Below, piece by piece: positions 7,097-62,118 of a stretch of 64,000 bases of DNA. The stretch lies in the NCBI RefSeq assembly GCF_053078305.1, contig NZ_CP166879.1; one strand, written 5' to 3'. The notes beneath the pieces were generated by a model. That model was not told the DNA's origin. It did not search any database and saw nothing but the letters and a program-made list of their open reading frames with translations. Within the stretch, counting starts at the first letter, position 1. Every line of letters begins with the position of its first letter. The position numbers and the translations under genes were made by a program.

Positions 7097-7774
7097 TCAC
7101 CAGTTACCGTAAGGATAAGTTTTATCTTTGATAAATTCCTTAATATCTTCATCATATCCATATGTGAAATCACTTTTAGTAACCCCCTTACACATATTCA
7201 TTTTATCACCCGATACTGTAGTAATTTTAGCATCCAACTGAGGTACCACCGGATTACCGCGATCTCCCAGCCAGACTCTTACCTTCCCTTCAGGTGCCAG
7301 ACCAATAATCATCGTTGAACGATAATAGGTTTCGTTCCAGCGGTTGTCTGTGTAAGGCGTAACCATCTGCTCCCAGGTTCCTTTTTTAAAAAAAATCAGA
7401 GTTTCATAACTCTTTTTATCAATTATCGAATCCCAGCAAAAACGCAACATCAGAGGTAATGCTTTCCCCTTGTTATAATACGACTCAGTCGCGCCCAGAT
7501 GCTCATTCCAGCGCCCTACACTGACCTGACTCGGTCTTGTGGTATCAAGATACTGATAAGTCGTCTTATAACCTTCCCCGTCCACCATCAATGCCTGAGT
7601 GGCCAGCGCAGGCAGAGCCTTTGGATAAATAAAGAGAAATTTCCATTCATCATAGGGTAATTTTTTATAACCCCATTCAGTCTTATCCGAATCAGCATAC
7701 TGTGAGCTAACAGAATTACACCCAGTTAACAATGCCAATAATGGTGCGATAAAAATGATTTTATCTCTGGTCAT
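7097..7774 (-). CDS. tli1: lipoprotein, putative Tli1-type immunity protein for the adjacent lipase effector
   Basis: 225 aa; signal peptide with lipobox LLTGC; immediately downstream of the DUF2235 effector, the usual effector-immunity order. Confidence 0.55.
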   Translation of the reverse strand: MTRDKIIFIAPLLALLTGCNSVSSQYADSDKTEWGYKKLPYDEWKFLFIYPKALPALATQALMVDGEGYKTTYQYLDTTRPSQVSVGRWNEHLGATESYYNKGKALPLMLRFCWDSIIDKKSYETLIFFKKGTWEQMVTPYTDNRWNETYYRSTMIIGLAPEGKVRVWLGDRGNPVVPQLDAKITTVSGDKMNMCKGVTKSDFTYGYDEDIKEFIKDKTYPYGNW

Positions 7775-30561: not shown

Positions 30562-31014
30562 CTACGTTTTATGCAGCCGCTCAGGGATGTATGTCACAAT
30601 TTTCTTTCGCCTGCTTAACCATCGTACTTCTCCTTCTCCCCATGGCTGAAGCTGTATGAGATAGTCAATAACTTTTCGACCAAAGCCTGGTTTACAACAG
30701 AAATCCAGAATCCAAATCCTTCCATCTTCATTCCATTCAGACGGATGCAACCTGAATTCTGGATCCCTGAGCAGGCGCGCTTCTGTATCAGCCTCAAGAT
30801 ATGCCCAGGTAATATACGCCAGTGGAAAACCTCGTGAATCAAACAGGAATTTAATCTGATTATGCTGTATCGCATATTCAGTCCAGTATTGAATGGTTAA
30901 CACCGGATACAGACTGTAATTACGATTGTAGAGCATACAACTGACCGCAAAACCGATCTGTTCATAAACAGTCCATTCATCTTTTCCTCTGATGGTTTCC
31001 CTTATATAAGACAT
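30562..31014 (-). CDS. mchD: microcin maturation protein MchD/MceI-like (HlyC-like acyltransferase family)
   Basis: 150 aa; position between mchC and mchE matches the H47 system; family assignment from recollection. Confidence 0.65.
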   Translation of the reverse strand: MSYIRETIRGKDEWTVYEQIGFAVSCMLYNRNYSLYPVLTIQYWTEYAIQHNQIKFLFDSRGFPLAYITWAYLEADTEARLLRDPEFRLHPSEWNEDGRIWILDFCCKPGFGRKVIDYLIQLQPWGEGEVRWLSRRKKIVTYIPERLHKT

Positions 31015-31039
31015 GATTACTATTTCCCTTATATATTTT

Positions 31040-32590
31040 TTACACTGTGTTTCTTATCGGTTCAAGATATCCAAATGCATCTCTGGAAAACTTAAGCATA
31101 AAATTTTTCATATCAGAAATTGCTTCTTGTAAAAAAAGGGGATCATCGCCATGATTATCCAGCAGGATGGCAATTTTTTCGCACATATTTTCTTTCCTCA
31201 GCTCTTCCCTGGGTTGCAGCCTTTTCATGGTATGATGTTCAATTTCTTTCAGGAGTAATGAGGCATTTATCTGACGTCTGGTACTGCCTTGCGTCAGCCA
31301 GTGGATGGCCTGGGAAAAACACTGTTGTGCAACGGTGAAATGAACATCATTCTTGATGCTACTATTCAGTGCCTGCTTTTGATTATGCCTATGATGGATT
31401 AGCGTCACAACCAACTTTTGCAATGGTGAACCATCCTGATTGACAATATCTTGGGCATGTGATTTCTCGCAGTATTGATTGAGTAATGCAACAAAACTGT
31501 TAACCAGTTCTTTCAATATATCAGGTATCTCTTTTTGTGTTATAAATTCTCCAGGAATACCCAACAGTTCTAGATAACAGTAATAACATGCTTCATGAAA
31601 AGTTTTCTGAAATATCTCCTCAACCTTCAAACGGGCTGCAAGAGTGAAGTCAGGGTCAAACATATATTTTCCGATATACAAGCAGAGATCAGACAGCCCT
31701 TGCATAAGTACCATCGGTTCTTTTGCCAGTTCAGCTAATCTTAGTTTATACCCAAAATCAGCTGGGGAATCTCCCGGAAACAGACAACTGAGTCCGTTAA
31801 AATCCATTAATCTGCCATCCATTGCAATATTAGAAGGAGAAGTTGTCAATCTCAGGAAACGTGTTCGACAAAATGCCATTTGCCAGGCCTCACGACGTGC
31901 CAGTTCACATAACCCCTCAATGCAATAAATCCGGGGATCAGTTCGTGCTTCAGCATCAATTTCTTCCGGTGGTACAGGTAGATATCCTGGCAGCTTGTGG
32001 ATCACAGATCTAACCCGACAGGCATCGTGAATTAACAGACTGGAATACTCCGGTTTTACTTGGAAGTAAGGTGCCCGTTCAAAATGCGCCGGACGAACAA
32101 CAGGCTCACGTACCAACAGGGCTCTTCGTGATTTCCTACCGGAGCGCTCAAATGCCTTTTCAGTATAGAGATCTGTAAGTAAAACCGCCCGAACCCGCAC
32201 AGCACTATAAGGTAATATTTGAGCCAGTACTTCTCCCCACAAAGCCTCATATATTGCATGAACAGCGCCGAGTGCACCATTAGAATGACGTTCGTCAGTA
32301 CCTTCGCCAACCAACGGATTACTTCCTATTCCTTTAACCTGGTAGTTACCATCAAACCCACAACGTGCACCACCTCCATTACGCTGAATACCACTGCCAC
32401 CATAGCGCTCTGCATGGAACACTTTGGCAGAAGCTGTACTGCCAGGATCGATAATATAACTGCAGGCATTTTGCAGCTCGTCTGGATTTCTGACATCCTC
32501 TGCACACCAGATTAATGAGGCCTTGATCTGCCTGGCAGTGAAAGGCACCAGGTTTTCATTCAGTTCAGAAAGTGAACACTGATGACTCAT
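31040..32590 (-). CDS. mchC: microcin maturation protein MchC/MceJ-like
   Basis: 516 aa; immediately downstream of mchB, as in the mchXIBCDEF arrangement. Confidence 0.7.
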   Translation of the reverse strand: MSHQCSLSELNENLVPFTARQIKASLIWCAEDVRNPDELQNACSYIIDPGSTASAKVFHAERYGGSGIQRNGGGARCGFDGNYQVKGIGSNPLVGEGTDERHSNGALGAVHAIYEALWGEVLAQILPYSAVRVRAVLLTDLYTEKAFERSGRKSRRALLVREPVVRPAHFERAPYFQVKPEYSSLLIHDACRVRSVIHKLPGYLPVPPEEIDAEARTDPRIYCIEGLCELARREAWQMAFCRTRFLRLTTSPSNIAMDGRLMDFNGLSCLFPGDSPADFGYKLRLAELAKEPMVLMQGLSDLCLYIGKYMFDPDFTLAARLKVEEIFQKTFHEACYYCYLELLGIPGEFITQKEIPDILKELVNSFVALLNQYCEKSHAQDIVNQDGSPLQKLVVTLIHHRHNQKQALNSSIKNDVHFTVAQQCFSQAIHWLTQGSTRRQINASLLLKEIEHHTMKRLQPREELRKENMCEKIAILLDNHGDDPLFLQEAISDMKNFMLKFSRDAFGYLEPIRNTV

Positions 32591-32861
32591 CTGGCAGTAT
32601 TCTCCGTTTCAATTTTCATAAAAGAGTGTTCATAAAAGAGCAAGTAAGTGTCCTGACAGCTTCTTCCTTATTACAGTAAAACTCTATTAATTACACATAA
32701 ATTAAAAAATTATTTATCAACGACTGTAAATCATATCTTCATCAGTAAAGTGTTGAACATAAAAACACACTTATAAATGGATCTTCTATCTGTTTTAAAC
32801 AAAAAGGATATATTTTACAGGTACTACCGAAAAAGTGCCTGTAAAATAAATAAAAATATAA

Positions 32862-33089
32862 TTAGCTACCGCCACCAGCAGAAGAACTGGCACTACCACT
32901 TCCCACGGTCGAGCCAATTGCTGTTGTCAAACCGGCAGATACGGCTCCAACTACAACCCCAAGTGGACCACCAGGTATTCCGGCGAGAGCTCCAACAATA
33001 GCTGCAGCACCTGCAGCATTAGCTGAAGTAGCTGGCGCACCTCCCGCCCCGGAAATATATCTTAACTGTGATTCTGTTATTTCTCGCAT
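32862..33089 (-). CDS. mchB: microcin H47 precursor
   Basis: 75 aa; leader MREITESQLRYISGAG; Gly/Ala-rich core; C-terminal SASSSAGGGS; matches my recollection of MchB. Confidence 0.85.
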   Translation of the reverse strand: MREITESQLRYISGAGGAPATSANAAGAAAIVGALAGIPGGPLGVVVGAVSAGLTTAIGSTVGSGSASSSAGGGS

Positions 33090-33116
33090 ATAAACTGCAT
33101 ATAAACTCCATCATAT

Positions 33117-33326
33117 TTAACTTCCGTTTTTCCAGCCTGACCAGACCAGAATCCTTCGAATCCCATGAATCAGCTCAATAAAACCAAGAAATATTATAAA
33201 GCTTAGAAAAACGTCAACATAAGAATTCCCTTCGCCAACAATCCGAAGGGATGAAAGTGAAACCAATAAGATAGTAATAGGTAAACTGAATATAGCCGTC
33301 AATTGGGACAGTTTTTTATAACTCAT
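33117..33326 (-). CDS. mchI: microcin H47 immunity protein
   Basis: 69 aa two-helix membrane peptide (MSYKKLSQLTAIFSLPITILLV...) directly upstream of mchB. Confidence 0.8.
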   Translation of the reverse strand: MSYKKLSQLTAIFSLPITILLVSLSSLRIVGEGNSYVDVFLSFIIFLGFIELIHGIRRILVWSGWKNGS

Positions 33327-33738
33327 TAATCCCTACCTGTTGCTTTATTTTCATTATGAAAAGTTACCAAATCTTAGCACCTCAGTCAGGAGAGTCAGGT
33401 CATCGATAAAGAATATTCCAGTAGAGTGGCGCTCATGATCAAAGATAACAGCAAAGTTGATGACAGCGCTGACCGACTGTCATTTACAGAAACCCTGTTT
33501 GTAGCACATTCCATCTTACCTGACCTCACCCAGACAAAGACAAAAGAGAATGATTGTTATTTACTTTTCAAAAAAAAGTGTCATATTGTCCATATAAAGT
33601 CAAGAGGTATTTTACGTTATGTCACTGATGCAATTGTTAGTCAGGATCTCATGGTTGTCGCTCATGTATAACCTGAGACTTGAACGCACACTAATAGCAC
33701 TGACGGTCATACATCGGGAAATGTGAGGAGGCATAAGA

Positions 33739-33984
33739 ATGAATTGTGATAATAATCACAGAAATGAAGAATTCATTGTTACCTTTGATAAAGGCAACAA
33801 GCAAGACAATTCAAGACGAAAACACGATAATTTTCCTATAGAGGTAGAATCCTCCGTAGAGCAGGAGACACACTGTATCACAAATAATAAGTCGGCTTCC
33901 GGTATAGTAACACATGACTATGATGCCGATTATATTTGTGGTTGTGGTGAAATTATGTGTCCTGGTTGCGGTCATGACCTATAA
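33739..33984 (+). CDS. small cysteine-rich protein, unknown function
   Basis: 81 aa; strong GAGGAGG site 8 nt upstream; C-terminal CGCGEIMCPGCGHDL cluster; lies where mchS4 is reported in the H47 system, but identity unverified. Confidence 0.45.
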   Translation: MNCDNNHRNEEFIVTFDKGNKQDNSRRKHDNFPIEVESSVEQETHCITNNKSASGIVTHDYDADYICGCGEIMCPGCGHDL

Positions 33985-34139
33985 CAAACATTTTTGCAAA
34001 CTGATACCTGATCAGGTACAAGCCTGTTGATTATTATGCTGAATATTTCATGTTATAAAACCATCGATATAAACATTAACAAGAAAAAACATATATTGTT
34101 TATCTGAACATTTATCGATGGAAAACCAAAGGGGAAAGT

Positions 34140-34574
34140 ATGTATCTTACGAAAAAGATTATAATAAGTATGATGTTTATATTACCATCTGCTGCATTTT
34201 CATCAGATCCACCTCCCCTTCAACAATCGTTAGAAAAAACAACCTATTTTTCTATAGGTATGAATGGGTTTATAGGCTATCAGAGCGAAGGGGAAAAATT
34301 ATACACACACATTCTTACATTAGATAATCCCGAAGAGATATTTAAAAATATAATAAAAAATAGAAAGTCAACTAAGGAGTCTAAAATTTATGCTGCTTGT
34401 GGGCTATATTATTTAAACGTAGAAAATATAGAGTCATTGTTTAATGAAAATGATAAACAAGAATATGTGTCTGTCTTAAGAGGGGATATTTTAACAAAAA
34501 TAAAACTGAATGATATTCTGAATTCTGTGATAATAAATGGTTGCAACACCAAATTAATATCTGAACATAAATGA
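34140..34574 (+). CDS. secreted/membrane-anchored protein, putative immunity protein for the adjacent precursor (MchS3-like)
   Basis: 144 aa with N-terminal signal/anchor; AAAGGGGAAAG upstream; 16 nt before the precursor gene; size and position fit MchS3. Confidence 0.5.
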   Translation: MYLTKKIIISMMFILPSAAFSSDPPPLQQSLEKTTYFSIGMNGFIGYQSEGEKLYTHILTLDNPEEIFKNIIKNRKSTKESKIYAACGLYYLNVENIESLFNENDKQEYVSVLRGDILTKIKLNDILNSVIINGCNTKLISEHK

Positions 34575-34590
34575 GCAGGAGGTCTTTAAA

Positions 34591-34824
34591 ATGAGAGAAA
34601 TATCAGATCACATGCTTGATTTCGTGAAAGGAGGGATGAATCTTAATGGATTACCTAGTTCTACTAATGTAATAGATCTACGAGGAAAAGATATGGGAAC
34701 ATATATTGATGCTAATGGAGCATGCTGGGCTCCGGGTACTCCATCCATCATCATGTATCCGGGGGGAAGTGGACCTTCTTATAGTATGAGTAGTTCCACA
34801 TCCAGTGCAAACAGCGGCAGTTAA
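34591..34824 (+). CDS. class IIb microcin precursor, probably microcin I47 (MchS2-like)
   Basis: 77 aa; leader MREISDHMLDFVKGG; C-terminal SSSTSSANSGS; AGGAGG upstream; terminator hairpin follows. Identity with I47 is from recollection only. Confidence 0.65.
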   Translation: MREISDHMLDFVKGGMNLNGLPSSTNVIDLRGKDMGTYIDANGACWAPGTPSIIMYPGGSGPSYSMSSSTSSANSGS

Positions 34825-34828
34825 ATAA

Positions 34829-34860
34829 ATACCCTCCGGCATGGCCGGAGGGTATTTATG
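34829..34860 (+). terminator. rho-independent terminator after the precursor gene
   Basis: Inverted repeat ACCCTCCGGC / GCCGGAGGGT with a 3-nt loop, followed by ATTTAT. Confidence 0.5.
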
Positions 34861-35112
34861 ATGTGCCTGTAAGACTCTACTTCTGTCGTCTCTTTACAAA
34901 GGCATATGATCTGTCATTTTGTACCAGACATCTTAACGAGAGCCTTTTCATATATTACTTACATACGTGAAATCTACAGTATAAAGCAAAAATTTTATTA
35001 AACCTGTTTTATATTTATCATCAATACAACAGATTTAATTCCGGAAAGTCACTCATCATCCCTTGAATGAACGTCATTTGATGTATTATTCTTACACTTG
35101 GATTAATTTAAG

Positions 35113-36387
35113 ATGATACCTATGAAAAACTATCTTTTCCAGACACCCGAAGATATTTGTGTACAGTTAAAAAAAATGACACATCCTGTCACAATAAGAA
35201 CAACAGATATTGCTAATTTCTGGCACTATCTTGAGTCAGCAACACTTCCAGTGATCACAAAAAGCACCACTACAGAAAATCGGGAGGTTACATTTCTGTG
35301 GCGCTCAGAGAAAGCACTGCAAGGCGTATATCTTCGCCTGAATCGTGTAACAGATAAAAAAGACGTCAAAAAAGGACTAATGACTCATATCCCTTCGACA
35401 GATATCTGGATGCTGACACTGGTGTTACCAGCTTCATATCGGGGCTCATACTCATTTATAGAAATTCCCACAGATATGACACAAAAAGACATATTTCAAC
35501 TAGGAAGTCGCTTCTCTCCATTACCCGGTAAATCTGATCCATTTAACAAAACAGCAGAAATAAATATACGAGGATTCGGAGAATCAGTCCTTTCTCTTGA
35601 TATGGCTCCTGAACAAAAGGAATGGGATGATACTTCCCATAAATGTACAGGTATTCTTTCAACATTACATTCCTTTGTTGCAGGATATCAACGCCGGATT
35701 CGTTTATATTTTCCCCTGAATCCAACATCAGTACCTCTTGGATTACTTGTGTTACCTGATGCTGAAACATGGTTTGACCGGATAGATATTACCCGGGCAT
35801 TAGATATGGCCATCACCACTGGTCGTATCACGCCAATGGCAATTATGGGGATAGACAATATTAATGAATCTGATCGTATGAATATACTGGGAGGCAATAA
35901 AGAACTCATCTTTGATATAGCGGAAAATCTGATACCCCAGTTATACAGAGACTATCCGGATATCGTATGGGCTGGTCGCTCTAATACTGTACTGGCCGGG
36001 CAGAGCCTCGGTGGAGTGACAGCACTGATGGCAGCTATATATGCGTCGACAACATTTGGTACAATCATTAGTCACTCACCTTCAATGTGGTGGAACCCTG
36101 ACCAGGGCAGCCCGATCTTGTTTACTGAGAATAATACCTCCTGGGTAAGTGAGCAGATACTTTCAGCGCCTCCGAAAGATGTAAATATTCGACTTGGAGT
36201 CGGTTCTTTAGAAGGTACAACCGTCTCACATGTTCAGCGATTGCATCATTCGTTAATCGCAGCTGGTTTGGAAAGTAACCTCACTGTCTATACCGGTGGT
36301 CACGATTATGCTTGGTGGCGCGGAGCAATTATTGATGAATTAGCAAATTATAATTGCAGGAAGGTATCAAATAATAACTCTGTGTAA
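35113..36387 (+). CDS. mchS1: enterobactin/salmochelin esterase family protein (IroD/Fes-like; MchS1/McmK)
   Basis: 424 aa; serine hydrolase motif GQSLGG; role in processing the siderophore moiety of class IIb microcins is established for this family. Confidence 0.8.
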   Translation: MIPMKNYLFQTPEDICVQLKKMTHPVTIRTTDIANFWHYLESATLPVITKSTTTENREVTFLWRSEKALQGVYLRLNRVTDKKDVKKGLMTHIPSTDIWMLTLVLPASYRGSYSFIEIPTDMTQKDIFQLGSRFSPLPGKSDPFNKTAEINIRGFGESVLSLDMAPEQKEWDDTSHKCTGILSTLHSFVAGYQRRIRLYFPLNPTSVPLGLLVLPDAETWFDRIDITRALDMAITTGRITPMAIMGIDNINESDRMNILGGNKELIFDIAENLIPQLYRDYPDIVWAGRSNTVLAGQSLGGVTALMAAIYASTTFGTIISHSPSMWWNPDQGSPILFTENNTSWVSEQILSAPPKDVNIRLGVGSLEGTTVSHVQRLHHSLIAAGLESNLTVYTGGHDYAWWRGAIIDELANYNCRKVSNNNSV

Positions 36388-36456
36388 AATATCTTTTTAT
36401 CGTCCGATAACTCTTTCTGCAATATTATTATGGGAGACTATCTCATTTATTTAGTG

Positions 36457-36492
36457 ATGTCCTTCATTTATGTGATGAAGGACATTATATTA
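36457..36492. terminator. hairpin between convergent mchS1 and mchA
   Basis: Inverted repeat ATGTCCTTCAT / ATGAAGGACAT with a 7-nt loop. Confidence 0.35.
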
Positions 36493-36528
36493 CTCATAAC
36501 ATTTCTCGTTGAAAATTTCAGCAATACG

Positions 36529-37653
36529 CTACAATTGTTTCCCGTTGTTTTTTAATTTTCTCATCAAAACCTCTGCAATCTCTGCAGGACTGGGTTGTTC
36601 AGCCATTTCAGCGGCTACCTGATCTGAACAGAAGCGTAGTGAATCATCATAAAGCAGGCGATTTACCAAATCACTAGTCAGTCCATGCTTGTCCGGAATA
36701 ATCCCACACCCACGCTTCGCAACAATTTCTGCATTAACAGAGCGATCTGCACCTTCGCCAAACACAATCTGTGGTATTCCACTATACAGCGCTGTCAGGG
36801 TATTACCTGCGCCACCGTGATGAATAAATCCATCAGCTCCATTAAGGAATACACCCATAGGTATCCAGTCAACCAGACGTACATTTGATGGTAGTTTTCG
36901 TAAACCAGTACGAGCATTTATTGCAAGTTGCAAAATGATATCAGCATCAACTTCATTTGCAGAATCCATAACCCATGAAATCAGCTCCAGACCATCAACC
37001 ATTGGTTTTACAGTGCCAAGGCTGATAAGTAAACGTTTCCGATCAGAATCCCTGTCCCACCATGTTTCCTTTACAGCACCTCCGTTATAAGGAATATATC
37101 TCATTGAGATAACCGGTTCTCCAGCATTTTTAAGAATGCTCATACTTGGGGGAGCAACATCAATCCATGCTAAATCACATAGTGGACCGCTGACTCCATG
37201 CCGCCTGTAAGCATTGCTTAAAGAACGGTTTAACATCTGAATATGGGCAGATGTATGCGCGAATCCAACAGCCAGCATCACTGAAGGAATTCTATATTTA
37301 GCAGCAACCAATGGGCCTGCCGGACCAAGAGGGGGATAGACTATTAAATCTGGCCTCCATTTTCCTGCAAAATTGATGAGGTTATCTGCCATTTCATCGC
37401 TAAAAAAAGAGAAATGACCAATAATATTACTTTTTTTCCTCAACTCTTCCTGATGGCGATATCCAGCCTCTGAATCTAAACCTGGAACTGCATCAAAAAC
37501 AACCAGTCCAGCTTCTGCTGCTTTATTCGCGAATTTGCCAGCGCTACTAATTACTACATCATGTCCAATTACACGAAAGGCCTGAGCCAGAGAAATCAAT
37601 GGGTATAACAAACCGTACAGCGGTGGGCCAATAAAAAGAATACGTTTTCGCAT
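36529..37653 (-). CDS. mchA: IroB-like glycosyltransferase (MchA/McmL)
   Basis: 374 aa GT-B type glycosyltransferase with C-terminal HHGGAGNT motif; convergent with the esterase gene. Confidence 0.8.
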   Translation of the reverse strand: MRKRILFIGPPLYGLLYPLISLAQAFRVIGHDVVISSAGKFANKAAEAGLVVFDAVPGLDSEAGYRHQEELRKKSNIIGHFSFFSDEMADNLINFAGKWRPDLIVYPPLGPAGPLVAAKYRIPSVMLAVGFAHTSAHIQMLNRSLSNAYRRHGVSGPLCDLAWIDVAPPSMSILKNAGEPVISMRYIPYNGGAVKETWWDRDSDRKRLLISLGTVKPMVDGLELISWVMDSANEVDADIILQLAINARTGLRKLPSNVRLVDWIPMGVFLNGADGFIHHGGAGNTLTALYSGIPQIVFGEGADRSVNAEIVAKRGCGIIPDKHGLTSDLVNRLLYDDSLRFCSDQVAAEMAEQPSPAEIAEVLMRKLKNNGKQL

Positions 37654-38381
37654 TAAAAAAGTCCGTCTTCTGCTTACCTGTTTATTTTTCTATCTCTAAG
37701 AAAACATAATTAATATTATTTTTATGTGAGCTTATGCACAAAAATAACCAAGTATATTATCTTCTGGTAGAGATACAGGATACAGTTTGTAGGAGCTTTC
37801 TTTTTTGAACAATGATTTGCAGGACAGTTATGCTAAACTAGCGGAATCAGTATCACAACAATAAATGACTGTTCATACCTGAAATTTGAATTAACAGGCA
37901 TCATGAATGTCAATAGTCTAAGCGGTGACTACTTATATCGCTTGCATAAATACTAAACACTGACTAGAAAAGTATTGGATAACCCCGTCACTAAAAGTAA
38001 CGCTTCGGTTATTTGCTCGGAATGTATTAACGCCAAGATTGTTAGCCGTTACGCCTTATATCACTGGCGCTGACAAATGTTTCTTTTCTAATTTACTGAA
38101 CCGGCGCAGACACGCAGGAAAGCACGCCGGCACCGGTGTAATGCCAGTTCTAATCAATAAGAATGGAATGACGAATCAGTCAGGAAGGGATAACAACCCG
38201 CTGCTGAACGGAAGGTATCAGCAGGAAGATGAACGGGAATATCGCCAGCACCAAGGGCAGGGCCGGGTTCCACAATACCAGCGCTGGCATTTTGCACATT
38301 GCCAGCGTACCGGCATTACAACACGTTTCATGCTGCTGCCCCCAGGATTCCTCGATTCGTTGCTACATCCACTGCTCTACT

Positions 38382-48289: not shown

Positions 48290-48335
48290 TAAAACGATCG
48301 ATAAAACAGGTATCGATCGTTACTATCGATCGTTT
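48290..48335. promoter_or_regulatory. antigen 43 phase-variation switch region (three GATC sites; expected OxyR-binding region)
   Basis: GATC at 48296, 48315 and 48328 in the sequence ACGATCGATAAAACAGGTATCGATCGTTACTATCGATCG, about 220-250 bp upstream of the flu start. Confidence 0.6.
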
Positions 48336-48548
48336 ATAGTGGTTAATGGTCTGCGAAAAGGCAGCTGAATCTCTTCATCATGCAGAACGGAATTGCACAC
48401 AACGGACTGATACTTCTCTGGCGGATGAGAGAGGGGAAGCATTTATGTCCGGGAAAAACCACTTTATCTGACCATGCTGTTTTGTACCTGCCGGTATCCA
48501 CATTTGTGGGTACCGGCTTTTTTATTCACCCTCTGTAAGGAAAAGCTG

Positions 48549-51500
48549 ATGAAACGACATCTGAACACCAGCTACAGGCTGGTATGGAATCACATTACGG
48601 GCACCCTGGTGGTGGCCTCCGAACTGGCCCGCTCACGGGGAAAACGCGCCGGTGTGGCGGTTGCGCTGTCTCTTGCTGCTGTCACATCAGTCCCGGCACT
48701 GGCTGCTGACACGGTTGTACAGGCGGGAGAAACCGTGAACGACGGAACACTGACAAATCATGACAACCAGATTGTCTTCGGTACGGCCAACGGAATGACC
48801 ATCAGTACCGGGCTGGAACTGGGGCCGGACAGTGAAGAAAACACCGGTGGGCAATGGATACAGAATGGCGGGATAGCCGGAAACACCACTGTCACCACAA
48901 ATGGTCGTCAGGTCGTGCTGGAGGGGGGAACAGCCAGTGATACGGTTATTCGTGACGGCGGGGGACAGAGCCTGAACGGGCTGGCGGTGAACACCACGCT
49001 GAATAACAGAGGCGAGCAGTGGGTTCATGAGGGCGGGGTTGCCACCGGTACAATTATCAACCGCGACGGTTACCAGAGCGTTAAAAGTGGCGGGCTGGCA
49101 ACAGGAACCATCATCAACACCGGCGCAGAAGGCGGCCCGGATTCTGACAACTCGTACACGGGTCAGAAGGTCCAGGGAACAGCAGAATCCACCACCATCA
49201 ACAAAAATGGACGGCAGATTATCTTATTTTCCGGGATAGCCCGTGACACTCTCATTTACGCAGGTGGTGACCAGTCGGTACACGGAAGGGCCCTGAATAC
49301 CACACTGAATGGCGGTTACCAGTATGTGCACAAGGACGGACTTGCGCTGAACACGGTAATTAACGAGGGGGGCTGGCAGGTTGTTAAGGCAGGTGGTGCT
49401 GTCGGTAACACCACCATAAATCAGAACGGTGAACTGAGGGTACATGCCGGCGGGGAAGCCACTGCAGTCACCCAGAACACGGGCGGTGCACTGGTTACCA
49501 GTACGGCTGCAACCGTTACCGGCATAAACCGCCTTGGAGCATTCTCGGTTGTGGAGGGTAAAGCTGATAATGTCGTACTGGAAAATGGCGGACGCCTGGA
49601 TGTGCTGACCGGACACACAGCCACTAATACCCGCGTGGATGATGGCGGAACGCTGGATGTCCGCAACGGTGGTACCGCCACCACCGTATCCATGGGAAAT
49701 GGCGGTGTACTGCTGGCCGATTCCGGTGCCGCTGTCAGTGGTACACGGAGCGACGGAAAGGCATTCAGTATCGGAGGCGGTCAGGCGGATGCCCTGATGC
49801 TGGAAAAAGGCAGTTCATTCACGCTGAACGTCGGTGATACGGCCACGGATACCACGGTAAATGGCGGACTGTTCACCGCCAGGGGCGGCACACTGGCGGG
49901 CACCACCACGCTGAATAACGGCGCCATACTTACCCTTTCCGGGAAGACGGTGAACAACAATACCCTGACCATCCGTGAAGGCGATGCACTCCTGCAGGGA
50001 GGCTCTCTCACCGGTAACGGCAGCGTGGAAAAATCAGGAAGTGGCACACTCACTGTCAGCAACACCACACTCACCCAGAAAGCCGTCAACCTGAATGAAG
50101 GCACGCTGACGCTGAACGACAGTACCGTCACCACGGATGTCATTGCTCAGCGCGGTACAGCCCTGAAGCTGACCGGCAGCACTGTGCTGAACGGTGCCAT
50201 TGACCCCACGAATGTCACTCTCGCCTCCGGTGCCACCTGGAATATCCCTGATAACGCCACGGTGCAGTCGGTGGTGGATGACCTCAGCCATGCCGGACAG
50301 ATTCATTTCACCTCCACCCGCACAGGGAAGTTCGTACCGGCAACCCTGAAAGTGAAAAACCTGAACGGGCAGAATGGCACCATCAGCCTGCGTGTACGCC
50401 CGGATATGGCACAGAGCAATGCTGACAGACTGGTCATTGACGGCGGCAGGGCAACCGGAAAAACCATCCTGAACCTGGTGAACGCCGGCAACAGTGCGTC
50501 GGGGCTGGCGACCAGCGGTAAGGGTATTCAGGTGGTGGAAGCCATTAACGGTGCCACCACGGAGGAAGGGGCCTTTGTCCAGGGGAACAGGCTGCAGGCC
50601 GGGGCCTTTAACTACTCCCTCAACCGGGACAGTGATGAGAGCTGGTATCTGCGCAGTGAAAATGCTTATCGTGCAGAAGTCCCCCTGTATGCCTCCATGC
50701 TGACACAGGCAATGGACTATGACCGGATTCTGGCAGGCTCCCGCAGCCATCAGACCGGTGTAAATGGTGAAAACAACAGCGTCCGTCTCAGCATTCAGGG
50801 CGGCCATCTCGGTCACGATAACAACGGCGGTATTGTCCGTGGGGCCACGCCGGAAAGCAGCGGCAGCTATGGCTTCGTCCGTCTTGAGGGTGACCTGCTC
50901 AGAACAGAGGTCGCCGGTATGTCTCTGACGACAGGGGTGTATGGTGCTGCAGGCCATTCTTCCGTTGATGTTAAGGATGATGACAGCTCCCGTGCCGGCA
51001 CGGTCCGGGATGATGCCGGCAGCCTGGGCGGATACCTGAATCTGATACACAACGCCTCCGGACTGTGGGCTGACATTGTGGCCCAGGGAACCCGCCACAG
51101 CATGAAAGCCTCATCGGACAATCACGACTTCCGCGCACGGGGCCGGGGCTGGCTGGGCTCACTGGAAACCGGTCTGCCCTTCAGTATCACTGACAACCTG
51201 ATGCTGGAGCCACAACTGCAGTACACCTGGCAGGGACTTTCCCTGGATGACGGTAAGGACAACGCCGGTTATGTGAAGTTCGGGCATGGCAGTGCACAAC
51301 ATGTGCGTGCCGGATTTCGTCTGGGCAGCCACAACGATATGAACTTTGGTAAAGGCACCTCATCCCGTGACACCCTGCGCGGCAGTGCCAAACACAGTGT
51401 GCGTGAACTGCCGGTGAACTGGTGGGTACAGCCTTCTGTTATCCGCACCTTCAGTTCCCGGGGGGACATGAGCATGGGTACAGCCGCAGCCGGCAGTAAC

Positions 51501-51671
51501 ATGACGTTCTCACCGTCACAGAATGGTACGTCACTGGACCTGCAGGCCGGACTGGAAGCCCGTGTCCGGGAAAACATCACCCTGGGCGTTCAGGCTGGTT
51601 ATGTCCACAGCGTCAGCGGCAGCAGCGCTGAAGGCTATAACGGTCAGGCCACGCTGAATGTGACCTTCTGA
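48549..51671 (+). CDS. flu: antigen 43 self-associating autotransporter
   Basis: 1039 aa from the ATG at 48549; extended signal peptide MKRHLNTSYRLVWNHITGTL...ALAADTVV; beta-helical repeat passenger; C-terminal beta-barrel ending QATLNVTF. Confidence 0.9.
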   Translation: MKRHLNTSYRLVWNHITGTLVVASELARSRGKRAGVAVALSLAAVTSVPALAADTVVQAGETVNDGTLTNHDNQIVFGTANGMTISTGLELGPDSEENTGGQWIQNGGIAGNTTVTTNGRQVVLEGGTASDTVIRDGGGQSLNGLAVNTTLNNRGEQWVHEGGVATGTIINRDGYQSVKSGGLATGTIINTGAEGGPDSDNSYTGQKVQGTAESTTINKNGRQIILFSGIARDTLIYAGGDQSVHGRALNTTLNGGYQYVHKDGLALNTVINEGGWQVVKAGGAVGNTTINQNGELRVHAGGEATAVTQNTGGALVTSTAATVTGINRLGAFSVVEGKADNVVLENGGRLDVLTGHTATNTRVDDGGTLDVRNGGTATTVSMGNGGVLLADSGAAVSGTRSDGKAFSIGGGQADALMLEKGSSFTLNVGDTATDTTVNGGLFTARGGTLAGTTTLNNGAILTLSGKTVNNNTLTIREGDALLQGGSLTGNGSVEKSGSGTLTVSNTTLTQKAVNLNEGTLTLNDSTVTTDVIAQRGTALKLTGSTVLNGAIDPTNVTLASGATWNIPDNATVQSVVDDLSHAGQIHFTSTRTGKFVPATLKVKNLNGQNGTISLRVRPDMAQSNADRLVIDGGRATGKTILNLVNAGNSASGLATSGKGIQVVEAINGATTEEGAFVQGNRLQAGAFNYSLNRDSDESWYLRSENAYRAEVPLYASMLTQAMDYDRILAGSRSHQTGVNGENNSVRLSIQGGHLGHDNNGGIVRGATPESSGSYGFVRLEGDLLRTEVAGMSLTTGVYGAAGHSSVDVKDDDSSRAGTVRDDAGSLGGYLNLIHNASGLWADIVAQGTRHSMKASSDNHDFRARGRGWLGSLETGLPFSITDNLMLEPQLQYTWQGLSLDDGKDNAGYVKFGHGSAQHVRAGFRLGSHNDMNFGKGTSSRDTLRGSAKHSVRELPVNWWVQPSVIRTFSSRGDMSMGTAAAGSNMTFSPSQNGTSLDLQAGLEARVRENITLGVQAGYVHSVSGSSAEGYNGQATLNVTF

Positions 51672-57403: not shown

Positions 57404-58048
57404 ATGAGCAGAATTATCACCTCCACCGTGTATACACTGAATGAGCTATCCGCCACCGCACGGGAAAAAGCCCGCGACGGGTACCGTCAGCATCATGCTG
57501 ACAGCAACTGGTATGAAAACGTGTATGAAGACTTCAGGAAGGTCTGTGACATTTTCGGGATTGACCTCCGCCAGCGCGTTTTCCAGCTCAGCAACGGCAG
57601 GTTTATGGAAGAGCCGTGCATCTGGTTCAGCGGATTCTGCAGCCAGGGGGACGGAGCCTGTTTTGAAGGACGCTGGCACTGGCAGTCAGCAACAGCCAGG
57701 ATAATCCGGGAGTATGCCCCGCAGGACCGTGAGCTTCATCGTATCGCGGATGCCCTGCAGGCGGTGCAGAAGCGTAACTTCTGGCAACTGCAGGCTGAAA
57801 TCCACCACCGGGGACGCTACTGCCATCCGTACAGCATGGATATCACCGTCACCCGGAACAGTCCGACTGGTCAGATAATGACAACCGATGCGGAAGCCGC
57901 TGTCAGCGAAGCCCTGCGCGACCTGGCCTTCTGGCTGTACCGTCAACTGGAAAACGAGTACGACTGGCTGACCTCAGATGCCACTGTGGATGAGGCCCTT
58001 CTCATCAACGAATACACCTTTACCGAAGCCGGTCTGCGCGCCGGCTGA
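57404..58048 (+). CDS. hypothetical protein inserted between yeeT and cbeA
   Basis: 214 aa ORF with ATG start 18 nt after the yeeT stop; codon usage like its neighbours; not recognised by me as part of the canonical yeeS-yeeT-cbeA-cbtA set. Confidence 0.45.
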   Translation: MSRIITSTVYTLNELSATAREKARDGYRQHHADSNWYENVYEDFRKVCDIFGIDLRQRVFQLSNGRFMEEPCIWFSGFCSQGDGACFEGRWHWQSATARIIREYAPQDRELHRIADALQAVQKRNFWQLQAEIHHRGRYCHPYSMDITVTRNSPTGQIMTTDAEAAVSEALRDLAFWLYRQLENEYDWLTSDATVDEALLINEYTFTEAGLRAG

Positions 58049-58097: not shown

Positions 58098-58466
58098 GTG
58101 TCAGACACACTCTCCGGGACAACGCATCCTGACGACAATCACGACCGCCCCTGGTGGGGACTCCCCTGCACAGTGACGCCCTGTTTCGGGGCACGTCTGG
58201 TGCAGGAGGGTAACCGGTTGCATTACCTTGCAGACCGCGCCGACATCAGAGGCCGGTTCAGCGATGCGGATGCATACCATCTGGACCAGGCCTTTCCGCT
58301 GCTGATGAAACAACTGGAACTCATGCTCACCAGCGGTGAACTGAATCCCCGCCATCAGCATACCGTCACGCTGTATGCAAAAGGGCTGACCTGCGATGCC
58401 GATACCCTGGGCAGTTGTGGTTACGTGTATATCGCCATTTATCCGACACCCGGAACGAAAACATAA
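58098..58466 (+). CDS. cbeA: CbeA (YeeU) antitoxin of the CbtA/CbeA system
   Basis: 122 aa from the GTG at 58098 with GAGGA upstream; begins [24 protein letters not shown], matching YeeU as I recall it. Confidence 0.85.
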
Positions 58467-58555
58467 ACCACCAGAATAAACCTCTGCTACTGCCCGGTGC
58501 ACCACAGCACCATTCTCCTCAAAATTTAATCGCTCATATCAGGAAAATCTTCATT

Positions 58556-58933
58556 ATGAAAACATTACCCGACACACACGTACGGGCGGCATCGCGCTGC
58601 CCGTCTCCGGTTGAAATCTGGCAGACACTGCTCACCCGACTGCTGGACCAGCACTACGGCCTCACGCTGAATGACACACCGTTCGCCAATGAACGTGTGA
58701 TTGAGCAGCATATTGAGGCAGGCATTTCACTGTGTGATGCGGTGAACTTTCTCGTGGAAAAATACGCGCTGGTACGAACTGACCAGCCAGGATTCAGCGC
58801 CTGTACCCGCTCTCAGTTAATAAACAGCATCGATATCCTCCGGGCTCGCCGGGCAACAGGCCTGATGACCCGCGACAATTACAGAATGGTAAATAACATT
58901 ACCCAGGGTAAGCATCCGGAGGCGCAACAATGA
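58556..58933 (+). CDS. cbtA: CbtA (YeeV) toxin
   Basis: 125 aa from the ATG at 58556 ([30 protein letters not shown]...), matching YeeV. Confidence 0.85.
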
Positions 58934-59418
58934 AACTGGCCCTGACACTGGAAGCCGACAGCATTAACGTGCAGGCACTGAACATGGGGCGCATTGTCGT
59001 TGACGTCGATGGCATTGAGCTCGCTGAACTGATTAACAAAGTCGCTGAAAACGGTTATTCACTCCGTGTGGTGGACGACTCCGACCAACAGTCAACCTGC
59101 ACACCACCACCGTTAACAACCCTTACCGGCATACGCTGCAGCACCGCACATATCACGGAAACAGACAACGCCTGGTTGTACTCGCTGTCACACCAGACCA
59201 GTGACTTCGGCGAATCAGAATGGATTCATTTTACAGGTAGCGGATATCTGTTACGTACCGATGCGTGGTCATACCCGGTTCTGCGGCTTAAACGCCTGGG
59301 GCTGTCAAAAATGTTCCGCCGTCTGGTTGTCACACTTATCCGGCGTTATGGCGTCAGTCTCATTCATCTGGATGCCAGCGCTGAATGCCTGCCGGGTTTA
59401 CCCACTTTCGACTGGTAA
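58930..59418 (+). CDS. yeeW: YeeW-like protein
   Basis: 162 aa; ATGA overlap with cbtA; position matches yeeW. Confidence 0.5.
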
Positions 59419-59429
59419 CCAGAAACAAC

Positions 59430-59627
59430 ATGAAATCATTAACCACTGAAACAGCGCTGGATATCCTCATTGCGTGGCTGCAGGACAATATCGACTGCGA
59501 ATCGGGAATTATCTTTGACAACGATGAGGATAAAACGGATTCGGCAGCACTGTTGCCCTGTATCGAACAGGCCCGGGAGGATGTCCGTACTCTTCGTCAT
59601 CTGCAGCTTCTGCACCAGAACCGGTAA
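59430..59627 (+). CDS. hypothetical small protein
   Basis: 65 aa from the ATG at 59430; typical small island-end ORF. Confidence 0.35.
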   Translation: MKSLTTETALDILIAWLQDNIDCESGIIFDNDEDKTDSAALLPCIEQAREDVRTLRHLQLLHQNR

Positions 59628-59711
59628 ATATCACTCACCAGACTTCATTCCACTGACGCCAGCCTGAACAGGGCTGGCGTTTTCATTTATCTGCAAAAAG
59701 GAATATCGATT

Positions 59712-60578
59712 ATGTCAGGTATCACAATCTCCCGTCCTGAAGTGGTCAACGGGCATACGGACGTTATCTGTTCCACCTCAATCGGACACATTCTGGCTGT
59801 ACGAAAGACCACACTGATGCAAATCGACACACTTATCCGGCAACTGACAGAAATCTCAGCAATGACAGAAAGTATTGGAGGTAAAACCGCCCCGGACTGG
59901 GCCATAAAACAGAATTTTCGCTGCGGTTGCTGGCTGATGGAGAAACCCGAAACAGCAATGAAAGCCATTACCCGGAATCTTGACCGCGAAATCTGGCGTG
60001 ACCTGATGCAACGTTCCGGGATGCTGTCATTAATGGATGCACAGGCACGTGATACATGGTACCGGTCACTGGAATACGATAATTTTCCGGAAATCAGTGA
60101 AGAGAATATACTGAGTACGTTTGAGCAGCTACACCAGAATAAGGATGAAGTGTTTGAGCGTGGGGTCATCAACGTCTTCAGGGGACTGAGCTGGAATTAC
60201 AAAACCAACTCACCCTGTAAATTTGGCAGTAAAATTATCGTCAACAACCTGGTGAGGTGGGACCGGTGGGGGTTTCATTTTATCACCGGGCAACAGGCAG
60301 ATCGACTTGCCGATCTGGAAAGAATGCTACACCTGTTCAGCGGCAAACCGATCCCCGACAACCGGGAAAACATCACCCTTCGTCTGGATGATCATATCCA
60401 GTCTGTTCAGGGTAAAGAGAACTATGAAGACGAGATGTTCAGTATTAAATACTTTAAGAAAGGCTCAGTACACATCACGTTCAGGAAACCAGAACTGGTT
60501 GACAGGCTTAATGATATTATTGCCAGACACTACCCGGAAGCCCTGGCAAGCACAGTGAACAAAAGCCGCAAGGCATAA
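59712..60578 (+). CDS. DUF4942-like protein (island-end family)
   Basis: 288 aa; family commonly follows cbtA/yeeW in CP4-like islands; assignment from recollection. Confidence 0.55.
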   Translation: MSGITISRPEVVNGHTDVICSTSIGHILAVRKTTLMQIDTLIRQLTEISAMTESIGGKTAPDWAIKQNFRCGCWLMEKPETAMKAITRNLDREIWRDLMQRSGMLSLMDAQARDTWYRSLEYDNFPEISEENILSTFEQLHQNKDEVFERGVINVFRGLSWNYKTNSPCKFGSKIIVNNLVRWDRWGFHFITGQQADRLADLERMLHLFSGKPIPDNRENITLRLDDHIQSVQGKENYEDEMFSIKYFKKGSVHITFRKPELVDRLNDIIARHYPEALASTVNKSRKA

Positions 60579-60649
60579 AAGAGGTATTTTACAATTCGCG
60601 AATATTAACTATTATTAATTGATAGCAATCAATCGGCGAGAAAATCACC

Positions 60650-60913
60650 ATGCCTACCAGTGTATCCCTCAGTCCTTACTTTGAAACGTTTATCCGCGAA
60701 CAAATAGAAAGTGGTCGGTATAACAATACAAGTGAAGTCATTCGTGCCGGACTTCGTGCTCTGGAAGAACGGGAACAGCAGATAAAGCTTGAATCACTCC
60801 AGAGCGCCGTTACCGCAGGCATCAACAGCGGTGAAAGTAAAAGTGCTGAAGAGGTATTCGGGCGACTGACGCACAAATACAAAAAGATGGCAGAAGGTGA
60901 ACAGCCAATATGA
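60650..60913 (+). CDS. parD: ParD-family type II antitoxin
   Basis: 87 aa; ribbon-helix-helix-type N-terminus (SLSPYFETFIREQIESGRYNNTSEVIRAGLRALEE); ATGA overlap with the toxin gene. Confidence 0.75.
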   Translation: MPTSVSLSPYFETFIREQIESGRYNNTSEVIRAGLRALEEREQQIKLESLQSAVTAGINSGESKSAEEVFGRLTHKYKKMAEGEQPI

Positions 60914-61236
60914 AACTGACTGTTTCACCATTAGCAGAACACGATCTTGAAGCTATAGGTGACTGGATCGCTCAGGATAATCCTGTCCGTGCAATCAGTT
61001 TTACCGAAGAGCTTTACCAACAATGTCTGTTGATAGCCGAATCGCCAGTACTCTACAGAGAAAGACCCGAATTAGGGGCTGGGATCAGAGGTTGTTCGTA
61101 TGGTCGTTACCTTCTGCTGTTCAGGGTACTGGATACTGAAGTTCGTATCGAACGTATCGTTCATGGTTCCCGGGATATCAACAGGGTACTTGCAGAGCCA
61201 GACGACAAACCATCAGATCATTTCTGGCAGCCATAA
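60910..61236 (+). CDS. parE: ParE/RelE-family type II toxin
   Basis: 108 aa; ParE-like; translationally coupled to the upstream antitoxin. Confidence 0.75.
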   Translation: MKLTVSPLAEHDLEAIGDWIAQDNPVRAISFTEELYQQCLLIAESPVLYRERPELGAGIRGCSYGRYLLLFRVLDTEVRIERIVHGSRDINRVLAEPDDKPSDHFWQP

Positions 61237-61480
61237 ACAAAATCTGTGCGTTAACGCTCCCTAACACAGGTAGCCAGGTATTTTATAAATCTCTGTATTT
61301 TGTTGTTACTTCGATTCCGCAATTCAGCATATCGAACCAGACAAAATGATTACAGCAAAGCACAAAAAAGAGGGATTATAGCGTCAAAAGAATTCGAATT
61401 GCACATGGGGGCCTCATTGGTGGCCTCGAAAACAACAAAGACAAAACAATCAATACAAAACAATTGGTTATATAACCAGT

Positions 61481-61503
61481 TTCATTCCGAGTCCGGGCAC
61501 CAA
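61481..61503 (+). repeat. 3' remnant of tRNA-Phe (pheU), putative island attachment-site repeat
   Basis: ATTCCGAGTCCGGGCACCA at 61484-61502 matches the last 19 nt of E. coli tRNA-Phe; the upstream sequence is not tRNA-like; it lies 617 bp before the cadC start, the pheU-cadC spacing I recall for K-12. Confidence 0.6.
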
Positions 61504-62118
61504 ATTCATATAAACGGACCTCCACGGAGGTCCGTTTTTCGTTTCAGGACGCCACGATTTAAGCGTTCTGCCTCCAAATCAATTCTACCGATCTCAACCA
61601 GATTCTCCCCACATCACCAGTAATTTGCGGGCATATCCCAATTCGGGAAAATTAGTTCCTGAGCTATAGCACTGACTGACGTGAAATGTCGTGCGGCCCC
61701 GTGATGCTGTTGAACGTCAAATGACGTCATCAGGAGCGTAACGCATCCATAAAGCACAACACCGGTCTGAACGGCGACTGATGAGATTTTCTGAATGAGA
61801 ACAAAGAGAAATGTATCAGTCCGCTTGCTCATGCAAAGACTAACAATCCATTAAAATAGTAAGCGCTCCGGACAATTTTCCATGGATTATTTTCTGAACA
61901 TTTTTCTTTGGCAAAGATGATGAATTTTGATGGTAAGGAATATTACTTCTGGTTCTCAGTAAAATCCTTTCGTAATACCATGTAATCAAGAAGTTTATGG
62001 CTGGTAAAAATAACGTCTTGCATTCACCAATAATATGTAAATAAACCCATCTATAGATGGTAAAAATAGGTTGTGGCAATTATCATTGCATCATTCCCTT
62101 TTCGAATGAGTTTCTATT

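Follow-up and report, generated by a model that had tools for sequence, protein, structure and literature searches.

Toxin-antitoxin (TA) pairs at the margin of a genomic island invite the question of whether they are there to keep the island in its host. We address it for a stretch of 64,000 nucleotides from contig NZ_CP166879.1 (assembly GCF_053078305.1; at its full length, the window), in which the pairs cbeA/cbtA and parDE occupy an interval, 58098-61236, that runs exactly from the GTG start codon of cbeA to the stop codon of parE. An earlier note on this DNA had described the two as type II systems, stacked within 3 kb of an attachment-site remnant at the island edge and consistent with addiction modules that stabilize the island. 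The gene names are correct, with family matches (Table 1) well beyond what chance would give, and all four open reading frames (ORFs) are full length and on the plus strand where the note had placed them. The explanation that we favor, and to which we would give a probability of roughly 85%, is that the interval represents the attR-side (distal) end of an Escherichia coli island that is large, mosaic and inserted in pheU, just upstream of cadC, and that it combines a type IV pair belonging to the island backbone with one of type II on a cassette. The two loci would be unrelated, differing in type as well as in history.

Since the window ends with cadC (62119-63657), it covers the E. coli pheU-cadC region. 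The attachment-site remnant is indeed present. The sequence TTTCATTCCGAGTCCGGGCACCA, which corresponds to the 3' end of tRNA-Phe, lies at 61480-61502 and is the single match in the 64-kb window in a pattern search; the pattern was matched in none of 100 shuffles, and in most genomes a tRNA-Phe is annotated beneath the matching 3'-end sequence. Homology to the K-12 backbone (98.9% by BLAST) begins at 61484, 19 nt inside pheU, and runs on through the pheU terminator, the yjdQ integrase remnant and cadC. The junction between island and core must therefore fall at 61483/61484, and the native pheU terminator, itself within the K-12 homology, now sits 3' of parDE. Measured to the remnant, the parE stop codon is 247 bp away, the cbtA stop 2.55 kb and the cbeA start 3.39 kb; the 3-kb figure thus holds for cbtA and parDE, whereas the start of cbeA is slightly beyond it. 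Similarly, both pairs are at the island edge, next to the att remnant, but they can hardly be called stacked, as 1.7 kb with three genes separates them. ARAGORN found no tRNA gene within the 64-kb window. It follows that the intact pheU gene and the island integrase are located more than 61 kb upstream of attR, outside the window.

One change to the earlier description concerns the type of the first pair. CbeA and CbtA are 90% and 89% identical, respectively, to their K-12 counterparts, the founding type IV TA system, in which the toxin binds FtsZ and MreB and the antitoxin acts on these same targets, stabilizing them, without binding the toxin (PMC5371832). There is no direct contact between toxin and antitoxin in the K-12 pair and no autoregulation of the operon by either; in addition, the three K-12 antitoxins cross-neutralize all three toxins, and the genes that encode them are deletable (PMC5371832). 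Type IV is likewise the label given to the family in Pfam names and RefSeq annotation, and an earlier publication described the module as a type IV TA in pheU, pheV and selC insertions of E. coli strains that produce Shiga toxin (STEC) (PMC6174562). Because the K-12 pair lacks both contact and autoregulation, and because Pfam and RefSeq concur, the type II label, while appropriate for parDE, is not accepted for cbeA/cbtA. Inhibition of FtsZ/MreB polymerization and neutralization without binding are assumed for the pair in the window from its 89-90% identity to that of K-12. CbeA matches the YeeU crystal structures 2H28 (E 6e-76) and 2INW (E 5e-78); a search of PDB sequences with CbtA gave no match, and the NCBIfam models matched neither protein.

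We also asked whether the toxins carry inactivating substitutions, the outcome that the earlier note had named as refuting its reading, and found none in silico in CbtA or ParE. Residue F65 of CbtA, invariant in the alignment, is kept; the F65S change abolishes FtsZ binding in CbtA, YkfI and YpjF (PMC5624674). Position 15 of the window protein is a Cys and position 14 an Arg. In K-12 CbtA, the R15C substitution causes loss of MreB binding while toxicity and filaments are kept, and YkfI and YpjF, which naturally have C15, are unaffected by the C15R reversal (PMC5624674). With F65 retained and R15C variants still toxic, the allele is predicted to be toxic through FtsZ; it may or may not also target MreB, given the Cys at position 15. 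Comparison with other alleles gave dN/dS values of 0.16-0.27 for cbeA and 0.21-0.23 for cbtA, which indicates that both genes are under purifying selection. The idea that either toxin gene is a pseudogene can be set aside in view of the full-length ORFs, the conserved F65, the purifying selection on cbeA/cbtA and the conservation of family residues in ParE.

The resemblance to the CbtA/CbeA (YeeV/YeeU) locus of K-12 CP4-44 extends to gene order, strand, the 89-bp gap between cbeA and cbtA with the antitoxin gene directly upstream, the overlapping yeeW-type gene that follows, the RadC and DUF987 neighbors upstream and the conserved F65. Unlike the K-12 element, the one in the window is at pheU, has a 214-aa ORF between DUF987 and cbeA, and carries a full-length yeeW (truncated in K-12). 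The toxin also differs: it has 125 residues as opposed to 124, its residues 6-15 depart from the K-12 sequence VLPGQAASSR, and its Cys15 is shared with YkfI and YpjF, the toxins of the K-12 paralogue pairs YkfI/YafW (CP4-6) and YpjF/YfjZ (CP4-57).

The second pair is a genuine type II system of the ParDE family. ParD scores 96.9 bits against TIGR02606 (cutoff 46.2), matches the ParD antitoxins 7B22, 3KXE and 8C24 in the PDB with E values from 5e-11 to 2e-9, and is identical in three other strains. The antitoxin gene comes first, and the parE ATG overlaps the parD stop codon (ATGA). All six PDB matches of ParE are to ParE toxins (6X0A, the best, at E 2.8e-13, then 7YCS, 3KXE, 5CEG, 5CW7 and 5CZF). 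In an alignment of 36 Enterobacterales sequences, 39-83% identical to the window protein, ParE keeps the consensus at 9 of 9 invariant and 17 of 17 near-invariant columns. Together, the matches to solved ParE, ParD and YeeU structures already settle the folds of these proteins. Residues 93-108 of ParE (61186-61236) make up a C-terminal tail of 16 residues, VLAEPDDKPSDHFWQP, situated past the region aligned to 6X0A and variable in both length and sequence across the Enterobacterales homologues.

Residues K52, R61, R81 and Y87 have a catalytic role in RelE. By BLASTP, K52, R61 and Y87 of K-12 RelE align with G, L and L in ParE, R81 alone being retained, and the score of ParE against the RelE/StbE model TIGR02385 (24.3 bits) is under the 27.9 cutoff. 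On the basis of these residues and the PDB matches, we reject an mRNA interferase of the RelE type. Since the protein belongs to the ParE branch and not to RelE, the activity to be expected, by family, is poisoning of DNA gyrase, neutralized by direct binding of ParD.

The ParDE pairs of Mesorhizobium opportunistum (6X0A, 5CEG), ParD1-ParE1 of Caulobacter (3KXE) and ParD2 of Vibrio cholerae (7B22, 7R5A) belong to the same fold family. They have in common with the window pair a ribbon-helix-helix ParD, an antitoxin-first operon, overlapping genes and the absence of most RelE catalytic residues. In contrast to these systems, to which its sequence similarity is only distant, the window pair is chromosomal and island-borne in E. 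coli, and its ParE has the extra 16-aa tail. In a search of plasmids, the closest relatives of ParE (70-82%) are in Salmonella, on IncF plasmids, and in Pantoea, on megaplasmids; the matches listed include no E. coli plasmid and thus no close copy on one. A phage origin of parE is unsupported, a search of a phage collection having returned only a 51% match in a Ralstonia phage.

Upstream of parD, a sigma-70-like site at 60588-60615 (TTTACA, a 16-nt spacer and TATTAT) is embedded in palindromes. Upstream of parD in the Salmonella IncF plasmid and the Pantoea megaplasmid, conservation covers about 30 nt around the -10 box and gives way to divergent flanks, a pattern that suits a promoter/operator. 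At the other locus, cbeA is preceded by a GAGGA Shine-Dalgarno sequence 6 nt upstream of its GTG, and no promoter-like site was seen in the 49-bp gap that separates it from the 214-aa ORF. The hairpin following the DUF957-type gene (Table 1), the last gene before it, would terminate a cbeA-cbtA-DUF5983-DUF957 transcription unit. Given this anatomy, the two TA loci, 1.7 kb apart and separated by DUF4942, appear to be transcribed as separate units.

The difference in history emerges from the distribution of the two loci. In CP4-type (P4-integrase) islands the right arm is conserved and includes the cbeA/cbtA pair; it comprises genes for a GTPase, Ag43, DUF932, an antirestriction protein, RadC and DUF987, then cbeA, cbtA, DUF5983, DUF957 and DUF4942. 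A 5.2-kb arm is matched in 5424 of the 5426 complete E. coli genomes, at a median of 4 places per genome; DUF4942 is found at 7366 places in 3931 of these genomes. By comparison, parDE (at least 80% coverage) is present in 471 genomes and missing from 4955. Pairwise BLAST of the window with thirteen sampled islands showed homology ending at 60535-60542, within the final ~13 codons of DUF4942; in the comparison with a pheV island it picks up again at 61312 and continues up to the tRNA repeat. These two limits therefore define the parDE cassette. In other islands the slot that DUF4942 and the att arm delimit holds DUF6088 and AbiEii (654 genomes) or a gene for an EAL-domain protein (442), or is empty; the alternative occupants were compared in sampled arms L005 (3572-5000) and L011 (4831-6460). 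Three kinds of sites harboring parDE were seen: pheU, a position before a second integrase, and the yghD/pppA site. Synonymous divergence (dS) is 0-0.03 for the parDE cassette versus 0.34-0.40 for the adjacent DUF4942. The cassette must therefore be far younger than the arms in which it resides, or it has been exchanged between arms.

Further evidence for a composite element comes from comparison with individual islands. The 24-48 kb portion of the window is 99.8% identical to the pheV island of strain 04-00955, which lacks parDE, and the last 3 kb (59001-62130) are 98.9% identical in DNA to the pheU island of STEC 2013C-3181. The pheV-like portion makes the island a mosaic of pheU- and pheV-type elements. 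The STEC 2013C-3181 island, like many others in E. coli, carries identical ParD (WP_001143297.1) and ParE (WP_000779483.1) proteins and has the same flank as the window, namely DUF4942, parDE, att, the yjdQ-like remnant and cadC; it differs from the window in its upstream cargo.

The sequence itself establishes the identity and intactness of the genes, the boundaries, the distribution and the cassette character of parDE. As to molecular activities and any part in island retention, we infer the following from homology and family knowledge. Following the K-12 model, CbtA would bind FtsZ through the surface that contains F65, blocking division, and CbeA would counteract it without binding it, through the bundling of FtsZ and MreB filaments. 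ParD, as a ribbon-helix-helix antitoxin, would bind ParE and repress its own promoter, and ParE would be expected to poison DNA gyrase. Should either locus kill cells that have lost the island, parDE is the likelier of the two; for cbeA/cbtA, inheritance as a module of the backbone, with little or no power of addiction, is more probable.

Several points weigh against the picture as a whole. The gyrase target is assumed from the family, and even 6X0A, the closest solved relative, is matched at an E value of only 2.8e-13. The Salmonella and Pantoea homologues do not share the -35 box of the putative parD promoter, which makes the promoter call soft. Literature searches turned up no paper on this particular E. 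coli island parDE. Finally, any addiction role would require that the island still excise, and the window does not reach its integrase end.

Table 1. Features of the attR-side end of the island; positions are those of the window.
Feature	Position	Strand	Evidence and remarks
cbeA (yeeU-type), type IV antitoxin	58098-58466	+	122 aa; PF06154, E 7.2e-55
cbtA (yeeV-type), type IV toxin	58556-58933	+	125 aa; PF06755, E 7.9e-63, profile 1-112 of 112
DUF5983 (full-length yeeW-type, 162 aa)	58930-59418	+	PF25638, PF19419; start overlaps cbtA stop (ATGA)
DUF957-type small gene	59430-59627	+	Homologous ORF annotated DUF957 in RefSeq strains
Intrinsic-terminator-like hairpin	59655-59681	+	11-bp stem, 7 GC pairs, then T run
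DUF4942 (methyltransferase-like)	59712-60578	+	PF13708, E 7.3e-70; last conserved right-arm gene
parDE accessory cassette, ~770 bp	~60540-61311	+	Segment missing in related islands without parDE
parD promoter-like site and putative ParD operator	60588-60633	+	Promoter scan, inverted repeats, cross-genus block
parD, type II ribbon-helix-helix antitoxin	60650-60913	+	87 aa; PF03693, E 3.9e-17; TIGR02606
parE, type II toxin, ParE branch	60910-61236	+	108 aa; PF05016, E 7.9e-18
Conserved island-terminal segment	61312-61483	+	93% identical to end of pheV island with AbiE and without parDE
attR core; final 19 nt of pheU as a direct repeat	61484-61502	+	Island/core junction
Native pheU terminator hairpin	61512-61537	+	12-nt perfect inverted repeat and T run

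What, then, might the two pairs do for the island? The earlier note leaned toward addiction, in which a stable toxin outlasts a labile antitoxin and kills or arrests the cells that have lost the island, so that the island is kept. That both loci work in this way strikes us as doubtful, even though both pairs are intact and encoded upstream of the junction, inside the island boundary. The case is reasonable for parDE, with its antitoxin-first order, overlapping genes and conserved promoter/operator-like block; ParDE is, moreover, a classical plasmid-stabilization family, with close relatives on the Salmonella and Pantoea plasmids mentioned above. Retention of an island is also what HipAB reportedly serves in Shewanella, to go by a title only. 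Further precedents for TA-mediated retention of integrated elements are MosAT in SXT, SgiAT in SGI1 and the TA systems of superintegrons (PMC5371832, PMC10790755). Even so, the 4955 genomes that do without the parDE cassette argue against addiction by this pair. The objections are stronger for cbeA/cbtA, where the K-12 precedent offers no contact, no autoregulation, deletable antitoxins and cross-protection by paralogues (PMC5371832), and where, with a median of four such arms per genome, losing one island leaves other antitoxin copies behind. Overall, an addictive role would be plausible for parDE and weak for cbeA/cbtA.

One could also envision both loci as selfish or neutral passengers that at present do nothing for island or host, cbeA/cbtA coming down with the backbone and parDE owing its spread by recombination to being hard to lose. 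The occurrence of near-identical parDE genes in islands whose flanks have diverged to a dS of 0.34-0.40 fits a recent horizontal spread, the islands are heavily mosaic, and what the CbtA family does physiologically in K-12 has been described as unresolved (PMC5371832). Nevertheless, this alternative seems unlikely to us, since the dN/dS values for cbeA and cbtA and the strict conservation of ParE residues show selective maintenance of the proteins. The force of this objection is limited in that the gene pair itself could be the level at which selection on the proteins operates.

The suggestion that the parDE cassette, and possibly cbtA, is anti-phage abortive-infection cargo, the slot after DUF4942 being a defense hotspot instead of serving maintenance, draws on the DUF6088 and AbiEii/AbiGii nucleotidyltransferase toxin genes that fill this slot in 654 genomes and on the antirestriction and methyltransferase-like DUF4942 genes of the arm, but it appears improbable, considering that no PADLOC model matched any of ten arm proteins, that the third common occupant of the slot is the EAL-domain gene and no defense gene, and that no report of phage defense by this ParDE clade came up, although no search was aimed at one.

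A comparison with the other common tenant of the slot is nonetheless instructive. AbiE, at the end of pheV islands, occupies the same DUF4942-to-att interval and is also a two-gene module of the TA type; its antitoxin-like DUF6088 gene and AbiEii nucleotidyltransferase toxin are unrelated to the ParDE proteins, and it is a known type IV abortive-infection system (PMC5371832), the toxin gene of which is frameshifted in the sampled strain. As a tentative proposal, the interval might be an exchange slot loaded preferentially with TA or abortive-infection cassettes, its content being selected for island retention or phage defense. As part of the same proposal, the near-identical parDE genes in diverged arms and at three integration sites would record recent swapping of the cassette between islands.

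Several neighboring features deserve mention. The ORF listing, Pfam and the RefSeq annotation of homologous loci together reveal a series of small plus-strand genes from 54.3 to 61.3 kb, in the order IrmA, DUF905, DUF932, antirestriction, RadC/JAB, DUF987, the 214-aa ORF, cbeA, cbtA, DUF5983 (yeeW-type), DUF957, DUF4942, parD and parE. The DUF957-type gene had no match in the Pfam copy used, and DUF5983 and DUF4942 were without a match among NCBIfam models; DUF4942 also matches phrog_6263, a DNA methyltransferase group, at E 6e-21. A literature search on DUF4942 together with CbtA brought up nothing specific. The 214-aa ORF (57404-58048, plus strand), between DUF987 and cbeA, is variously named in RefSeq as "antitoxin of toxin-antitoxin stability system", "hypothetical" or DUF8835. 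It is present in island arms L001, L005, L009 and L010 and missing from K-12 CP4-44, L004 and L008. Searches of Pfam, NCBIfam, PADLOC and the PDB gave no match for it, the sole match being to phrog_5162, a group of unknown function. As BLASTP detected no similarity to CbeA (E 0.82), the antitoxin name looks unsupported. In tblastn searches with the TA proteins, the window yielded no second copies.

Between the parDE cassette and the junction, the conserved segment that ends the island is probably an att arm. It opens with TTCGATTCCG (61310-61319), a 10-nt match to the T-arm of tRNA-Phe placed 160 bp 5' of the true 19-nt pheU repeat, and an imperfect 24-nt direct repeat is found at 61339 and 61439. 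As an att arm the segment could have integrase-binding sites; alternatively, it could be what remains of an older tandem insertion. On the other side of the junction, a stretch at ~61700-61860, flanked by the pheU repeat and cadC, contains a degenerate fragment of a tyrosine recombinase (yjdQ in K-12). This fragment, which is conserved backbone and no part of the island, testifies to an older insertion at pheU.

Farther upstream, the island carries a type VI secretion cluster at ~0.7-24 kb (VasJ/ImpA, IcmF/TssM, VgrG, ClpV and an OmpA-domain protein) and, at 27000-37700, a microcin-type export and modification cluster with an MchF-like ABC exporter of the C39-peptidase type, its HlyD partner, an enterochelin-esterase-like protein and a glycosyltransferase. 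An Rfam scan of the whole window returned IS102/IsrC alone, at 48294-48530 on the plus strand (74.6 bits; gathering score 46), with no match in the TA region. The match is just 5' of the Ag43 autotransporter gene (48474-51671) and overlaps its start, in an arrangement like that of isrC before flu in K-12 CP4-44.

Both pairs are already catalogued, cbeA/cbtA as a standard part of the backbone and parDE as a common swappable end cassette. In public collections, exact protein matches are found on 527 contigs for CbtA, 706 for CbeA and 526 for the 214-aa ORF, and the exact ParD and ParE sequences occur on at least 1000 contigs each; the RefSeq entries to which the latter two are identical are present in hundreds of genomes. 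The findings have little import beyond correct annotation, CbeA/CbtA being a stock component of the pheU, pheV and selC islands of E. coli, and a variable TA/Abi slot at the island end is only a mildly new angle. Still, that the first pair is type IV rather than type II changes what should be expected of an addiction experiment, and the recognition of parDE as one of several alternative cassettes in the end slot offers a guide for studies of island retention and of the gain of defense cargo.

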